From assembly GCA_050178385.1 (NCBI GenBank), contig JBFXGD010000095.1:1-13296 (forward strand): DNA of 13,296 nt. Reading direction: 5' to 3'. A program made the translations under genes and the position numbers. Shown piece after piece: positions 3,769 to 13,106 of the stretch. Below the pieces are notes generated by a model. The model was not told where the DNA came from, searched no databases, and was given only the letters and a program-made list of their open reading frames with translations. The stretch comes from Calditrichaceae bacterium. GTDB lineage: Bacteria > Calditrichota > Calditrichia > Calditrichales > JBFXGD01. Each line of letters opens with the position of its first letter. Within the stretch, counting starts at the first letter, position 1.

Positions 3769-4590
3769 TTAACGCGCCTCCGGTTTCTCGGCAACTTTGC
3801 CCTTTTCAGCCATTAGGGTCATCATCATTATTACATAGATCGCGCTGCTTGACCTGTTTAAGCCTTTCATTAAATCCTGTCTTGAAACACGAAATAATTC
3901 ATCAATAAATAAATCAGCGGCGATGACTTCTGCTTCCCGTACCAGCGCGCGCAGATAATTCAGATGCGCCACACGGAGGCCATGATCTTTGCATGGGACG
4001 ATATGGTCATGCCCGAGATATTTTAAAGGATTATGTGAAATCGCATGAATAACTTCTTCATCCATATCTCCGATAGAAACCGGAGGCAATTCTTCACCTG
4101 TGACTTCTGCTTTCAGAATATTGCCCAGATAAGAACGGATGTCAGCGAGATATTTGTTCAGCACCGGGTATTTATCATCGGGATCAAATTCACTTTGCAA
4201 CAGAACCGTGTAGGCAATAATAGTATCCAGTTTACCCCTTAACTTCAGCCGTGAGTTGTTTTTAGGTACAAGTGTGTTTTTATCCAGGTGCGTCATCGTA
4301 TCAGGTTTATTTTCAATATGCTGGCCGCATAACGAACATTCGTTGTCCGGACGTTTCGTCCCGCCGGTCAATGGATGTACAGGCTGCTCCGAAGACACAT
4401 TCCCGTCATTTTTTGCCGGAAGATAAACCCGCCCCTCATCATCAACAAACTTTACTTTTATCTTTCTTTCCTGCAACAACTCATGCGCAGACGGTGTGAG
4501 TTTTGCTTCCCTGGGAAGATTTAGTTCCGTTCCGTGCCCCAGGCTGTAATTATCTCGCAGCCACAGTTCTGTAATAAATTTTTGACTCAT
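3769..4590 (-). CDS. eutT: ATP:cob(I)alamin adenosyltransferase EutT
   Basis: FITELWLRDN, LTPSAHELL, H-x12-C-x2-C, KPDTMTHL, LRGKLD, LNYLRALVREAE, LNRSSSAIY match EutT. Start moved from 4620 to ATG 4590 (MSQKFITE), which removes the overlap with eutQ and matches the recalled EutT N-terminus. Confidence 0.92.
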   Translation of the reverse strand: MSQKFITELWLRDNYSLGHGTELNLPREAKLTPSAHELLQERKIKVKFVDDEGRVYLPAKNDGNVSSEQPVHPLTGGTKRPDNECSLCGQHIENKPDTMTHLDKNTLVPKNNSRLKLRGKLDTIIAYTVLLQSEFDPDDKYPVLNKYLADIRSYLGNILKAEVTGEELPPVSIGDMDEEVIHAISHNPLKYLGHDHIVPCKDHGLRVAHLNYLRALVREAEVIAADLFIDELFRVSRQDLMKGLNRSSSAIYVIMMMTLMAEKGKVAEKPEAR

Positions 4591-4595
4591 AATTA

Positions 4596-5321
4596 TCAAC
4601 CTTTTGCCAATTGTGCCCAATTTGCCGGATATGTTGAATAAAATACCTTTGTTCTCGTCGGCGTCCCGAAGATTATGCTGCTGCCCTTAGGTATGTAGAA
4701 CATGTCTCCGGCATGTCCTTCAAAGGTCTTGCCATCGATCGTTATTGATAGAATACCTTCCAGAACGATATCAACTTCATCGTAAGTAAGCGTCCACGGG
4801 AAAGATTCCTTTTTCCATTCCATAATACCCGCGGCTATGGGAGAACCATCTTCATGAGTTACCACATCAGCCAATCTGATATTTTTATCGGGTCCCGCCT
4901 CTTCGAATCGTTCAAGCTTAACAGACTGCCCCTTGATCAAAATAATGCCGGAAGAATCAACTTTTCGCTCGCTGCCTTGCCGAATTACAGGAGCCTTACT
5001 ATATTTTTCGTTCTTCAGCACGGCCATAACAATTTCTTTAATTTTTACCGGATCTCTTTGATTCGCAGGCAACTTCTTTATAACTTCGAGCGTCACCTGC
5101 CTTACAAGATTTTCATCAATATTCACCGGAGTAGAAAGACTTTTGGATTCCTTAACAGCCGGCATTGATGAATTCACTTTTTCTGAAATCTTTATTCCGA
5201 ACTTTTTTGCAAGGTCTTTCGCTTCAGGGGTTATAATCGAATTGTCTTTTGACGCGACGATTTCCTTAATCCCTTCGGTCTTTGCCTGTCTGATTTTTGA
5301 TGCGGTGATCAATTTTTTCAT
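4596..5321 (-). CDS. eutQ: EutQ, cupin-fold ethanolamine utilization protein (reported acetate kinase activity)
   Basis: N-terminus MKKLITA...SIITPEAKD and C-terminal cupin FPWTLTYDEVDIVLEG..GDMFYIPKGSSI.FGTP..YPANW. Start ATG 5321 preferred over GTG 5333 on homology. Confidence 0.94.
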   Translation of the reverse strand: MKKLITASKIRQAKTEGIKEIVASKDNSIITPEAKDLAKKFGIKISEKVNSSMPAVKESKSLSTPVNIDENLVRQVTLEVIKKLPANQRDPVKIKEIVMAVLKNEKYSKAPVIRQGSERKVDSSGIILIKGQSVKLERFEEAGPDKNIRLADVVTHEDGSPIAAGIMEWKKESFPWTLTYDEVDIVLEGILSITIDGKTFEGHAGDMFYIPKGSSIIFGTPTRTKVFYSTYPANWAQLAKG

Positions 5322-5334
5322 CTCTAAACCCACT

Positions 5335-5793
5335 CTAGTTTATATGATTTCTCTCTATGAGGTATTTTCTAAGTTTATCTATCGTTTTGCTCTCCAGCGC
5401 TGAAACTTCAAATATATTTTCTATGATACCATACTCTTTCAGCAATTCCCGGACTTCTTCCACCCGGGCGTCAGGCAGATCAATTTTTGAAATGACACCA
5501 ATGACCCGGTTATTATAAATTGTGAACAGGCCCGGAGGCATTTTATGCTCGACCACATTACTTTGATGCACATATAAAATGGTATCGATCGCGGTCATGG
5601 TTGAGATCAATGCCGTGTATAATCTGGGATTATCAAGATATTCTCCCGGCGTATCGATAGTACGTTCATCATGATAAACCATCGCCTGCGTTTTAATCAC
5701 TTCTTCATCCCGGTTTAGCAGAGCATTAAACAGGGTTGATTTGCCAACACCTGTTGTTCCTATCAGCATAAAATTATCTGGTTTCTTCTTCAT
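5335..5793 (-). CDS. eutP: EutP/PduV-family small P-loop GTPase-like protein
   Basis: Walker A GTTGVGKSTL, KTQAM, IDTPGEY, SKIDL, FEVSA motifs; start overlaps the eutS stop (TGATG). Confidence 0.94.
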   Translation of the reverse strand: MKKKPDNFMLIGTTGVGKSTLFNALLNRDEEVIKTQAMVYHDERTIDTPGEYLDNPRLYTALISTMTAIDTILYVHQSNVVEHKMPPGLFTIYNNRVIGVISKIDLPDARVEEVRELLKEYGIIENIFEVSALESKTIDKLRKYLIERNHIN

Positions 5794-6149
5794 CAGGTTT
5801 TTGTAACCTCACATGGTGTATATCCCAAAATACTGCTTAGGACCTGATTTACTGAAATCAACGATTCTTCAACCGCCCCGACTTCTCCGTAGAAGACCAG
5901 GGCGCCGGTAAACCGGTCCAGAAAACCTATGTCCACGCTGGCCGCTTTAAGAGCTATATCTCCGGCGATAATCGCTGTCTCACCTGGTGTGAGCGTCATT
6001 ATTCCGATCGCGTTCACATAAGGAACTCCAATTTTTTTGCAGAGATCTTCACCCGGATGAGCAATCATGTGAGCAAGAGTGACCTGCTTCCCCGGGACAT
6101 ATTCCTGAATGATACGTTCTTTCCCGGATAAATCGTTAATGTCTTTCAT
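5793..6149 (-). CDS. eutS: Circularly permuted BMC-H shell protein EutS/PduU
   Basis: [22 protein letters not shown]...[38 protein letters not shown] is the EutS signature. Confidence 0.96.
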
Positions 6150-6912
6150 CTTCCCTCACGCGTTTAATGATTTCTTTCGACAGCAATTCATAGTCCCTGC
6201 TTCCGCTCGCGCGTTTGTCAAAATAGGAAACAGGCATTTTTTGATTGTACGCTTCACTGAGTTTACTGTTGATCCCGATAACCGATTTAAAAACCTGCTC
6301 ACCGAAACGGCTCCTGAGTTGTTCCATTACCTGGACCGAAACTTTTGTTCTCTTGTCAAAATGTGTTCCAAACAGACCAAGTATCTTAATTTCAGGATTA
6401 ATTCTCCGTCTTACTTTTTCAAGCAAACTCAATGTTAGTTCCAACCCCGAAAGCGCTATATATTGAGCTTGCACCGGTATAAGGGCATAGTCTGAAACCG
6501 CGAGCGCGTTGAGTGACAAAGAACCCATATTGGGCGGACAATCAAAAATCACATATTCAAATTCAGCGGGGATATCCTCTTTTTTTATGAAGAATGATAT
6601 TTTTTCATCCTGCTGTAATTCATCATAAAAATCACTTAAAGACGGTTCGGAAGGCAGACACCATAAATTTTTAAATTCCGTTTTTTGAATATAATCTTTT
6701 ATGTTATCTTCCTTGTTTATCAGATAATCACAGATCGTATTAAATTCCATGTCTTGTTTAATAAGACCAAGGTGACTCGACGCGCTCGAAGAAGGATCAA
6801 TATCAGCCAGCAGGGTTTTTTTACCCATTTGACCAAACCAGGAGGCGATATTCACCGCGCTCGTGGTTTTACCCACCCCGCCTTTATTATTGATAATGAT
6901 GATCAGCTTCAT
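6136..6912 (-). CDS. ParA/Soj-family ATPase (orphan; candidate BMC-positioning McdA-like protein)
   Basis: Deviant Walker [11 protein letters not shown] with signature Lys, A' motif LADIDP, Walker [27 protein letters not shown] and NSKLSEA segments; Soj-like length (258 aa). Starts 1 nt after the eutK stop and overlaps the eutS start by 14 nt. Confidence 0.93.
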
Positions 6913-6913
6913 T

Positions 6914-7474
6914 TTAATTTTCCATCAGGTAGTATTTCTGATGAACCTTCTCAATCAATTTTGAATCAACTAATTTTTTGATAACCTTACGGACTTCCGT
7001 TAAAATTACTCCAAGCTTGTCTGATATCTCCTGCAGAGTAAGACCTGTTTGATCGGATCTAAGCAAAGCCAATATTTTTTGAGAATTGTCGGGTTTCTTT
7101 CCCGATACCGGCATCTTTTTGGCTTGCTTCTCTTTTATTGGATTCCGGGTCTTGTTACTATTGGTAATTTCCTGTTGCCTTTTCCCCCGAAAATTACCCG
7201 TCAATAGCTGCTTTACTAAAAATTCAGTATCATCCACAGGTCGGGCGATCACGTGGTGCGACACAACTTTACCAATACATTGCGCCGCGCTTTTACCGGC
7301 ATCAACTGCCGCCTGACATGCAGCCAAATCTCCCTCGACAATGACTGTAATCAACGCGCCACCGCTTTTTTTAACCTTGATTATATGTACCTTAGCGGCC
7401 TTAACCATGGCATCAGCGGCTTCTATCGCTGCTGTCAATCCCCTTGTCTCGATAAATCCATATGAGTTCAACAT
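6914..7474 (-). CDS. eutK: EutK: BMC-H shell domain fused to a C-terminal winged helix-turn-helix domain
   Basis: aa 1-90 BMC domain (GFIETRGLTAAIEAADAMVKAA..VEGDLAACQAAVDAG..IARPVDDTEFL); aa ~131-186 ILALLRSDQTGLTLQEISDKLG..EVRKVIKKL..KYYL resembles the EutK C-terminal HTH; follows eutL as in enterics. Confidence 0.9.
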   Translation of the reverse strand: MLNSYGFIETRGLTAAIEAADAMVKAAKVHIIKVKKSGGALITVIVEGDLAACQAAVDAGKSAAQCIGKVVSHHVIARPVDDTEFLVKQLLTGNFRGKRQQEITNSNKTRNPIKEKQAKKMPVSGKKPDNSQKILALLRSDQTGLTLQEISDKLGVILTEVRKVIKKLVDSKLIEKVHQKYYLMEN

Positions 7475-11963: not shown

Positions 11964-12012
11964 CAAATAAAGACTATCCCCATAGCGGTTAAACCATGGG
12001 GAAAGTCTTTAT
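11964..12012 (-). terminator. Long stem-loop or intrinsic terminator after the porin gene
   Basis: ATAAAGACTATCCCCAT (11967-11983) / ATGGGGAAAGTCTTTAT (11996-12012), 17 bp with one mismatch. G-U pairs extend the stem on the minus strand, and it ends in UCUUUAUUU. Begins 17 nt after the porin stop. Confidence 0.75.
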
Positions 12013-12029: not shown

Positions 12030-13106
12030 TTAGAATTCGATCAGTAACTGAGTAATATAAGTCATATCCATTTCAGAATCCGCGCCGGGTGCAGGTTTAT
12101 AATTTTCTGCTTTCGCGTTAAACATCAGCATACAGCTGCCGACGATTTTATAATTAACACCACCAAGAAACATTGTGATTTCATCATCATCAACATCTGT
12201 ATCAGGATCATGAATACCCGCCTGAGCAAGCAGCATCATATTAGGGTTTAAATCATAATTTACATAGCCCATATATGAAAGACCGGATGGTGTATCGCCA
12301 GCGGCGTTCTTGATTGTTGAACGGCCCAGATCAACTTCAACACCGGCGTCAAACTGATCGGCAACAGCGTATTCAATACCACCACCGAAAGCATCGTTAT
12401 GTTCTTCATTATTGCCTGAATACATATAATCCATAATTCCCCAACCAAATACTGTGAAGCCCTGGACCGGATGCAGCCATACATCAAAACCGATATTTTT
12501 AGCTTTGTTGTCATCGCCGGCATAGTTATACGTATTTTTGTTTGAAAGAGCTAAACGAGTGTAGCCCAATTTGTTCGGAAGGTTATATGTGGCCATAAGA
12601 CCTGTCACTGCTGAACTGAAACCTTCAGGGAAAGCAACGGCGTTATCATAAGTGTAGCGATCAAGCCAGCTGTTTTCGATGGTGCCATGATAACTCTGTG
12701 GCCCTGGTTGTTCGTAATTACCAAAGATCATATCAACATTTTCGACACCAAGAAAGTTTGTGAATTCAAGATATGCATACTTAATTCTTGAGCGGGTTCC
12801 TTCGTTGATTAATTTACTGTAGGATGTTCCGTCAGGATAATAGCCGGTATCATATCTGTTTTTGTGGGTGAAATCCACCGTAAAACGGGCTTTAATATTA
12901 TCCGCTAATTTGTATTTCATGGTAATATATGCGCGATCAAATTTGAATTCATTGCCTGTTCCGTTCATCAATCCGTCATTAACCCAATAGCGGTATCGTA
13001 ATGTTGTTGAAAGACTAAAATCATCATTAATTTTACCTGCAAAAAGGTTGGTACTCATGAGTACAAACAGCAACATGAGACTCATGGTAGAAAATCTTCT
13101 TAACAT
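12030..13106 (-). CDS. Putative outer-membrane beta-barrel porin (OprO/OprP-like motifs)
   Basis: Sec signal peptide MLRRFSTMSLMLLFVLMSTNLFA/GK; many alternating amphipathic aromatic-rich strands (FKFDRAYITMKY, RIKYAYLEF, IGFDVWLH, GGGIEYA, MGYVNYD, LGGVNYK); C-terminal beta-signal YITQLLIEF ending in Phe; strong SD GAGGAG. Confidence 0.8.
   Translation of the reverse strand: MLRRFSTMSLMLLFVLMSTNLFAGKINDDFSLSTTLRYRYWVNDGLMNGTGNEFKFDRAYITMKYKLADNIKARFTVDFTHKNRYDTGYYPDGTSYSKLINEGTRSRIKYAYLEFTNFLGVENVDMIFGNYEQPGPQSYHGTIENSWLDRYTYDNAVAFPEGFSSAVTGLMATYNLPNKLGYTRLALSNKNTYNYAGDDNKAKNIGFDVWLHPVQGFTVFGWGIMDYMYSGNNEEHNDAFGGGIEYAVADQFDAGVEVDLGRSTIKNAAGDTPSGLSYMGYVNYDLNPNMMLLAQAGIHDPDTDVDDDEITMFLGGVNYKIVGSCMLMFNAKAENYKPAPGADSEMDMTYITQLLIEF

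Follow-up and report, generated by a model that had tools for sequence, protein, structure and literature searches.

The window analysed here is a stretch of 13,296 nucleotides that makes up one entire contig (C95, JBFXGD010000095.1) of the draft genome of a Calditrichaceae bacterium (GCA_050178385.1; 3.9 Mb, 94% complete), and it carries an ethanolamine (eut) operon for a bacterial microcompartment (BMC) in which the gene of a ParA-type ATPase lies between two shell genes. On balance, sequence comparison, a predicted complex and the analogy with carboxysome positioning lead us to favour the view that this ATPase and the product of the gene directly upstream, an EutK-like shell protein, would form a two-gene module positioning Eut microcompartments in a manner similar to McdA and McdB, with the adaptor built into the shell. 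To our knowledge, only carboxysomes have a characterised BMC positioning system (McdAB), and this locus bears on the spacing and inheritance of catabolic microcompartments.

The neighbourhoods of related ATPases were surveyed in 80 loci from genome contigs and 80 from metagenome contigs (some of them near-duplicates), which were fetched with a profile of 36 members of the clade described below and searched by tblastn with the proteins of the window and of two other contigs of the same genome, C161 and C24. Across the 160 loci, identity to the window ParA is bimodal, either at least 49% or at most 37%. Among the 31 loci of the upper mode, none has a ParB and 29 have a shell gene, while an EutK-like gene lies directly upstream of ParA, on the same strand, in 28 out of 28 of those whose upstream DNA extends over at least 130 nt. 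The 129 loci of the lower mode include 28 with a ParB, none with a shell gene and none with an EutK-like gene directly upstream. Three upper-mode loci are cut at or near the start of ParA, and the two without a shell gene nevertheless show pta or an open reading frame (ORF) similar to the N-terminal part of EutQ after ParA; counting these two truncated loci, recognised by pta only, all 31 have a BMC-type context. In five metagenome loci (L104, L105, L106, L108 and L109), the order is eutA-B-C-L-K-ParA-S-P-Q-T-pta-M-M-N-E-J, with ParA in the same place as in the window, even though these ParAs are only ~50% identical to ours and have as nearest named relatives a protein of an Ignavibacteriae metagenome-assembled genome (MAG; 55–65%) and proteins of an unclassified “bacterium”. 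ParA is also followed by eutS in L171. Within the phylum, the EutK-like gene is directly upstream of ParA in all 29 loci fetched, our own locus excluded.

Phylogenetic analyses gave the same picture. In a FastTree analysis of 152 rows (eleven loci with a ParA that was cut short, over-long or without translated product having been dropped beforehand), all 27 rows of BMC-linked ParAs group in a single clade with a support of 100 and a stem of 0.65, and a quick IQ-TREE analysis of 94 rows, pruned of nineteen rows with long branches and of every other unlabelled row, recovers the same clade (SH-aLRT 100, stem 0.69), while its sister group is without support (50 with IQ-TREE). EUT-linked ParAs were also considered as a single group inside the clade, but such a group is not recovered. 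Because the topology within the clade differs between the two trees, we make no claim as to which type of locus first had the module. At the phylum level, a clade ParA (E ≤1e-60) is found in 35 of 86 genomes, all of them in the order of our organism (39 genomes), the other four families (47 genomes) being without it. BMC domains occur in 61 of the 86 genomes. Of these 61, 37 belong to this order, and 35 of the 37 have the clade ParA; the 24 BMC-bearing genomes of the other families lack it, as do the 25 genomes in which no BMC domain occurs. Within the phylum, two copies are observed only in the genus of our organism (G000 and G038). By these comparisons, the window ParA belongs to a distinct clade restricted to microcompartment loci that lack parB. 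The initial annotation, which saw in this gene a candidate metabolosome-positioning ATPase, had named closest homologs that are ordinary ParAs without BMC linkage as evidence to the contrary; what we found instead is BMC loci in 31/31 cases and ParB in 0/31.

Four ParA-like genes are present in the genome. Next to the window ParA, these lie on contigs C161, C24 and C13, and their products are 60%, 37% and 32% identical to it, respectively. The C24 gene is followed by a complete ParB with ParB_N, HTH_ParB and ParB_C domains, and this pair is the chromosomal parAB. The window ParA is thus not the chromosomal ParA, and the separate parAB that its reading as a dedicated ATPase called for does exist. 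The C13 gene (C13:4225-4971, L009) is the most distant copy. As for the C161 gene, it sits in a second microcompartment locus, in the order EutK-like (with a 4-nt overlap with ParA), ParA, 100-aa ORF, pta, two BMC-H, aldehyde dehydrogenase, EutJ-like, PduS-like and PduT-like. From its gene content, this second locus type matches the description of the Caldithrix abyssi locus, which has an aldehyde dehydrogenase, a pta-type phosphotransacylase (PTAC) and PduS, no signature enzyme, and is classed as MIC according to Axen 2014 (PMC4207490). In the complete genome represented by L200, the K-ParA pair likewise opens a MIC-type operon, after an unrelated peptidase gene. When the two K-ParA pairs of our genome are compared, the residues at the core of the interface predicted below are identical and only peripheral residues differ.

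The 100-aa ORF after the C161 ParA was considered as a McdB-like protein, an identity ruled out by its tblastn alignment to the N-terminal part of EutQ. The same ~100 N-terminal residues of EutQ are a stand-alone ORF right after ParA in MIC-type loci (e.g., L007:6308-6610 on the minus strand, by tblastn), and the EutQ N-terminus is reported to bridge shell and cargo (Yang 2025, PMC12487888). By eye, the start of EutT has a similar short motif (I/L-T-P-x-A followed by a basic helix); the two window ORFs, EutQ and EutT, are at 4596-5333 and 3769-4620, both on the minus strand.

Regarding the protein itself, the window ParA matches PF13614 (AAA_31) at 2.6e-45 and PF01656 at 3e-21, while none of the NCBIfam equivalogs for ParA or MinD reaches its cut-off. 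It has a deviant Walker A motif with the signature lysine (K10, K15), a Walker A' motif (D37/D39) and a Walker B aspartate (D124), and these five catalytic residues are kept in 100% of both the 27 clade rows and 125 other ParAs. On this basis, it belongs to the deviant Walker A ATPases of the ParA/MinD family. Ranked by PDB bit scores, its closest solved relatives are 8RAY (“ParA family protein”, 174 bits), Thermus Soj (142 bits) and Helicobacter pylori Soj (117 bits). MinD-type solved proteins reach 42–49 bits, against 142–174 for Soj/ParA, and the solved cyanobacterial McdA (6NON, 6NOO) reaches 44 bits over the N-terminal residues 1–170 only. The best protein matches are 50–60% identical, and those with a name are annotated as ParA or “chromosome partitioning protein” in MAGs of Calditrichota, Ignavibacteriae, Caldisericaceae and “Bacteroidetes bacterium”. 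In the HMMER alignment, R188 of the window ParA falls on R182 of Thermus Soj and K217 on R211, two residues that are equated with R189 and R218 of Bacillus subtilis Soj (PMC6393308); the by-eye alignment of the initial annotation had placed the DNA-binding arginines at these same positions. With respect to the basic patch used by B. subtilis Soj for non-specific DNA binding (R189, K201, R215, R218), three of the four positions are basic in our ATPase (R188=R189, R200=K201, K217=R218). Two of these residues are fixed in the clade, R188 in 27/27 rows and K217 in 26/26, and binding to nucleoid DNA is plausible. The C-terminal tail (13 residues) is charged, as are the tails of the clade, which appear by eye charged rather than amphipathic.

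The partner candidate is the gene directly upstream. Besides its BMC domain, the encoded protein shows only weak Pfam matches to HTH_11, HTH_24, IclR and TrmB. It scores 109.9 bits with the NCBIfam EutK equivalog (NF012010), below the cut-off of 218, it has no match to PF16365 (EutK_C) at E 0.001, and its tail matches the structure of the E. coli EutK tail (3I71) weakly (E 0.077). The product of 6914-7474 is thereby best named EutK-like, judging from these profiles. We recovered 43 distinct EutK-like proteins, for which the distance from the stop codon to the start of ParA ranges from −26 to +47 nt, a 4-nt overlap being the commonest arrangement. In an alignment of 37 of them (A3), a BMC-H domain is followed by a variable low-complexity linker and by a conserved winged helix of ~58 residues, in which G144, K166, D170 and E175 are invariant and K176 and Y181 nearly so. 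The linker of the window protein has a net charge of +10 over 41 aa, and the 37 linkers have a median length of 38 aa, a net charge of +9 and 30% K/R. Very long linkers rich in Lys, Pro and Ala (61–88 aa, net charge +15 to +24), which recall histone H1-like tails, are encoded in L164:408-1121, L189:818-1504 and L191:2256-2888. The EutK of E. coli K-12, which is without a linked ParA, aligns over the whole length, with a linker of 23 aa and a net charge of 0, and it has E, S and R at three positions that are invariant in the ParA-linked winged helices.

A profile of the tail only was searched against 1.84 billion representatives, yielding 838 proteins at E ≤0.001 and 61 at E ≤1e-10. Among the 150 matches listed, 35 have a single matched stretch, of which 34 were scanned with Pfam: 26 of these, 165–237 aa long, combine a BMC domain at the N-terminus with the tail match at the C-terminus, 7 are short (56–117 aa) without a BMC domain, and 1 (165 aa) also has none. 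The multi-stretch matches that were scanned are proteins with tandem helix-turn-helix (HTH) repeats, and their similarity is for this reason regarded as generic; P0125, P0126 and others like them reach 1557 aa, with 5–15 tandem HTH units and dozens of overlapping Pfam HTH families. A word-index search with the EutK-like tail returned 3 close proteins only.

The structure of a complex between two ParA chains (alignment A2), two ATP and residues 88–186 of the EutK-like protein (alignment A3) was then predicted. It obtained a score of 0.65 (0.67, 0.65 and 0.64 in the individual runs), while the best of three controls obtained 0.01; of 157 solved complexes, 116 reach the score mark, as do 2 of 215 mismatched pairs, counts that hold only roughly here because our own alignments and a ligand were used. 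The runs share at least 34% of the contacts, with a partner per-residue confidence (pLDDT) of at least 64. The prediction supports a winged helix of the EutK-like protein that binds across the ATP-bound ParA dimer. Confident predicted contacts involve winged-helix residues 147–182, not the linker, and, on the ParA side, residues 131, 134 and 166–171 of one subunit and residues 61–66 and 91–103 of the other. Since these contacts span both ParA subunits, the predicted pose requires the ATP dimer. For comparison, ParB peptides and MinE are described as inserting at the dimer interface of their ATPases (PMC5393062), and residues 88–119 of the pSM19035 ParA as binding its ParB (same source).

The conservation patterns of both proteins were examined at this predicted interface. 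Of the four invariant residues of the winged helix, three (K166, D170 and E175) are located there, along with four clade-specific residues of ParA (C61, F95, K166 and R169), none of which is missing from more than one of the 27 clade rows. Among them, K166 and R169 are present in 27/27 clade rows, where ParB-linked ParAs have I/L at 166 and E/D at 169. In total, 4 of the 18 interface positions are clade-specific, from 17 such positions over the 258 of the protein (hypergeometric p ~0.02). Moreover, several predicted contacts pair opposite charges: ParA D62 with EutK-like K166, ParA E98 with R162, and ParA K166 with E175. The ATPase had been called an orphan without a partner. This label is wrong, for the likely partner is the upstream EutK-like shell protein, whose gene precedes the clade ParA in 28/28 and 29/29 loci and which is predicted to bind the ParA dimer. 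Of the earlier idea that the ATPase positions metabolosomes, what stands is thus the BMC-only clade without parB, the separate parAB and the kept Soj DNA-binding residues, while the absence of a partner has to be given up.

How such a module would work can be sketched by reference to known ParA systems. ATP-bound ParA dimers would cover the nucleoid by means of the Soj-type basic patch (R188, K217), while EutK-like hexamers, inserted in the shell, would present their C-terminal tails to the cytosol. BMC-H termini lie on the concave face of the hexamer, and the concave face is turned outward in solved shells, so that the EutK-like tail would reach the cytosol. The winged helix would dock across the ParA dimer interface, so that only the ATP state would be recognised, and for the adjoining polybasic linker, stimulation of ATP hydrolysis, contact with DNA or condensate behaviour may be envisaged. 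Hydrolysis would free ParA and create a local depletion, in such a way that the compartments would move up ParA gradients (a diffusion ratchet). As an outcome, compartments would stay apart and be shared between daughter cells.

From the comparative evidence, positioning appears well supported. Several points nonetheless weigh against it. Gene linkage indicates a shared function with the microcompartment, not which function. The complex score is the model's own confidence, the partner pLDDT being only 64, and the enrichment of clade-specific residues at the interface (4/18) is modest. Furthermore, the predicted interface is the winged-helix face that usually reads DNA, and because both would use this same face, the error could lie either with DNA binding by this domain or with the predicted pose. 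A polybasic linker is not found in every family member, the net charge being +1 or lower in 6 of 37 EutK-like proteins, and the fourth position of the basic patch is not basic in our ATPase (I214, equivalent to R215 of B. subtilis Soj; I214/V214 in the clade). Finally, in Salmonella, where no ParA is linked, the distribution of Eut BMCs is reported to go through EutK (PMC12487888), and the distribution of Pdu BMCs to be unchanged by the deletion of parA or minD (PMC12866334); in light of both results, ParA is not needed for metabolosome spacing in general.

At face value, part of these data might be explained without any spacing over DNA, if ParA were an assembly or anti-aggregation factor whose ATP use controls the entry of the EutK-like tile or prevents the clumping of shells. 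Such a role, which we regard as rather unlikely, would fit with the place of the K-ParA pair at the head of the operon in the second type of BMC locus, with the description of alpha-McdAB as an anti-aggregation mechanism (PMC8359340) and with Eut shells reportedly beginning at the pole before an EutK-dependent redistribution (PMC12487888). However, a DNA-free role would not require R188 and K217, which are fixed in the clade, and Soj/ParA proteins, which bind the nucleoid, are the closest relatives with a solved structure. Another explanation is a regulatory pair, in which the winged helix of the EutK-like protein binds operator DNA of the BMC operon and ParA modulates this binding, in the same way as type Ia ParAs co-repress their own operons. 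The weak matches of the tail to HTH and winged-helix families (HTH_11, HTH_24, IclR, TrmB), the lack of eutR in the window and the position of K-ParA as the first genes of the second locus type are in line with it. We nevertheless consider it improbable: a sister genome (L201) already has a histidine kinase and a sigma-54 response regulator (as well as a further receiver protein) upstream of the same eut locus, the window ParA is of the short type without an HTH domain, a repressor fused to a shell-tiling domain would be an odd design, and it is towards ParA that the best conserved residues of the winged helix are predicted to point. Nor does any repeated motif resembling parS or an operator stand out near the module in a search of the window, where the only repeats are those of the shell-gene paralogs and one palindrome upstream of eutA.

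ParA/MinD ATPases use differing surfaces, and the window ParA could place compartments at the membrane or the poles, like MinD, FlhG or ParC/PpfA, instead of on the nucleoid. The charged, non-amphipathic tails of the clade (by eye), the low bit scores of MinD-type solved proteins compared to Soj and the conserved residues of the basic patch make this a slim prospect. Lastly, public records name relatives of our ATPase “chromosome partitioning protein” or “Soj”, and its sequence similarity to Soj is high, as would be expected from an ordinary chromosomal or plasmid partition gene that had landed in the operon without any role in the microcompartment. Yet, this account is barely credible, since the genome has a separate parAB and the neighbourhood survey contradicts it; moreover, the clade is absent from 25/25 phylum genomes without a BMC domain, and the gene arrangement persists at ~50% ParA identity.

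Positioning by ParA and the EutK-like protein can then be compared with known systems. In McdAB, both of the alpha type (Halothiobacillus neapolitanus) and of the beta type (cyanobacteria), a ParA-type ATPase is likewise encoded in or beside the BMC operon, with the partner gene adjoining. The signature lysine is common to alpha-McdA, beta type 2 McdA and the window ParA, and the expected mode would be alike, by analogy, with gradients of a nucleoid-bound ATPase that act on an adaptor located at the shell. McdB-like proteins are described as having a C-terminal aromatic residue (PMC8359340), and the EutK-like protein similarly combines a basic disordered stretch with a conserved C-terminal aromatic (Y181/Y182). 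In contrast, McdB is small, soluble and disordered and is encoded downstream of its ATPase, which it contacts by an N-terminal peptide, whereas the putative adaptor here is a shell protein (BMC-H, linker and winged helix) encoded upstream of ParA, with a predicted contact through the folded winged helix. The low similarity of the window ParA to solved McdA was given above, and the cargo also differs: a carboxysome for McdAB, a catabolic Eut or MIC-type metabolosome here. A small disordered McdB with a C-terminal tryptophan was not found next to ParA, both flanking genes being shell genes that, together with ParA, leave no space for a small ORF between them, and Pfam detects no ParB among the 12 window proteins; the earlier statement that neither a ParB nor a McdB-like ORF adjoins ParA is therefore correct, as are the junctions then reported (ParA between two shell genes, 1 nt after the eutK-like stop and with a 14-nt overlap with eutS).

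Compared to chromosomal Soj/ParA (Thermus Soj 1WCV/2BEK, H. pylori Soj 6IUB, 8RAY), the window ParA has the same length, the same Walker motifs and, by alignment, the two DNA-binding basic residues tested in B. subtilis Soj, but it differs by its context without ParB or parS, by a separate long-stem clade, by the ParAB encoded elsewhere in its own genome, and by clade residues of its own where ParB-type partners would dock. As for the EutK of Salmonella and E. coli, the EutK-like protein shares its architecture (BMC-H and C-terminal HTH) and its place after eutL, but falls below the NF012010 cut-off and has a longer, strongly basic linker, while three winged-helix residues are changed in E. 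coli; furthermore, the enteric eutK is followed by eutR and the gene studied here by ParA. Finally, the putative McdAB-like pairs of GRM and PDU loci (MacCready 2021) also consist of a ParA in a catabolic BMC operon with predicted positioning, but their partner is small, disordered, Lys-rich or acidic, and follows ParA at the end of the operon, whereas our partner candidate is the preceding shell gene.

The general idea of ParA/McdA-like positioning near BMC operons, EUT included, is already in print, as the initial annotation had partly noted for McdA-like genes near other BMC loci. ParA is listed as an ancillary family of BMC loci by Axen 2014 (PMC4207490), McdA- and/or McdB-like genes are reported in four non-carboxysome BMC operons by MacCready 2021 (PMC8359340), one of which may be of the type of our window, and the latter statement is repeated by MacCready and Vecchiarelli 2021 (PMC8262871), while a 2025 review names EUT and PDU among the BMC operons with McdA/B-like genes (PMC13052382). 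In Salmonella lacking eutK, Eut BMCs are described as polar and static, and the authors suggest a ParB-like EutK (Yang 2025, PMC12487888); polar bodies in eutK mutants are also reported in a 2026 preprint (10.64898/2026.10.07.757396), which draws the mcdA/mcdB parallel. Like the deletion of parA or minD, heterologous McdAB leaves the distribution of Pdu BMCs unchanged (PMC12866334). A conserved EutK-like/ParA module, or a shell protein acting as a ParA adaptor, was not found in full-text literature searches, although supplements could hold such loci, and the putative shell-integrated adaptor is what we regard as new.

The Salmonella work established that EutK governs the distribution of Eut compartments and, in the account cited, names neither a mechanism nor an ATPase. 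Our locus and its relatives supply a strictly conserved pairing of an EutK-like protein and a dedicated ParA, with a predicted interface made of mutable charge-paired residues, and this pairing makes the speculation that EutK acts like ParB directly testable at the bench. If correct, the adaptor would be of a new design, the part that binds the ATPase being carried by a shell tile of the cargo itself, and the two-gene module could help to place engineered microcompartments in cells. By extension, it is possible, though less likely than not, that EutK-type shell proteins are in general the built-in equivalent of ParB or McdB in metabolosomes, with a winged helix that binds a ParA dimer rather than DNA, and that enterics keep only the EutK half with a changed tail. 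The shell tile itself would then couple the organelle to a nucleoid ATPase gradient, and the complete two-part system would persist in Calditrichales, Ignavibacteria-like and related lineages, while enterics would position their Eut compartments through the changed EutK tail. In our own genome, one K-ParA pair per compartment type would amount to two parallel organelle-positioning systems in one cell.

Coordinates of the features of the proposed module and of its junctions in the window (13,296 nt)
Feature	Position	Strand	Basis
ParA-type ATPase, 258 aa	6136-6912	-	Pfam, translation, BMC-linked clade member
Deviant Walker A / P-loop codons, ParA residues 8-17	6862-6891	-	Translation; N8-T17 invariant in alignment A2
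EutK-like shell protein, 186 aa, proposed shell-borne adaptor	6914-7474	-	BMC PF00936 2e-26, weak winged-helix matches
BMC-H domain of EutK-like protein, residues 1-88, would tile into shell	7211-7474	-	
EutK-like Lys/Arg-rich variable-length linker, ~residues 89-128	7091-7210	-	Alignment A3
EutK-like C-terminal winged helix-turn-helix, residues 129-186, predicted ParA-binding surface	6917-7090	-	
EutK-like stop TAA (6914-6916), 1-nt spacer (6913), ParA ATG (6910-6912)	6910-6916	-	
14-nt overlap of ParA stop (6136-6138) and eutS ATG (6147-6149)	6136-6149	-	
eutS shell gene, operon context, not put forward as partner	5793-6149	-	NCBIfam EutS, 176 bits vs cut-off 123

The rest of the window was assigned to families with Pfam, run on the 12 window proteins, and with the equivalog cut-offs of NCBIfam. 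All genes are on the minus strand, in the order porin-like ORF without family, eutA, eutB, eutC, eutL, EutK-like, ParA and eutS, followed by eutP, eutQ, eutT, a pta-type eutD, three eutM, eutN and eutE, the latter cut by the contig end. The features of an EUT1-type ethanolamine BMC locus are present (eutABC, pta-type EutD, the eutK/L/M/N/S shell set and eutE), a pta-type PTAC being the hallmark of EUT1 according to PMC4207490. With respect to E. coli K-12, the order is that of the enteric EUT1 operon rotated, with eutABCLK before eutSPQTD-M-N-E, and ParA lies at the seam, where enteric operons carry eutR and the operon start. In the sequencing-run listing, no run is recorded as RNA, and the only entries are DNA contigs with partial shares.

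The three eutM are tandem paralogs (1797-2764), seen as 300-nt direct repeats with 74–77% identity, whereas the five related metagenome EUT loci have two copies. The porin-like gene and eutA are separated by 79 nt, in which a 17-nt inverted repeat (11967-12012, 94% complementary, 12-nt loop) could terminate transcription of the upstream gene or serve the eut operon as an operator. The porin-like ORF itself (12030-13106, minus strand, 358 aa), so named by eye, has a signal-peptide-like start and no Pfam family. In the sister genome, an ORF of 359 aa without Pfam family occupies the same position just upstream of eutA (L201:5501-6580) and is preceded by another unknown ORF, the receiver protein, the sigma-54 response regulator and the histidine kinase. 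The porin-like ORF and these regulators may represent an outer-membrane channel and a regulator set for ethanolamine.

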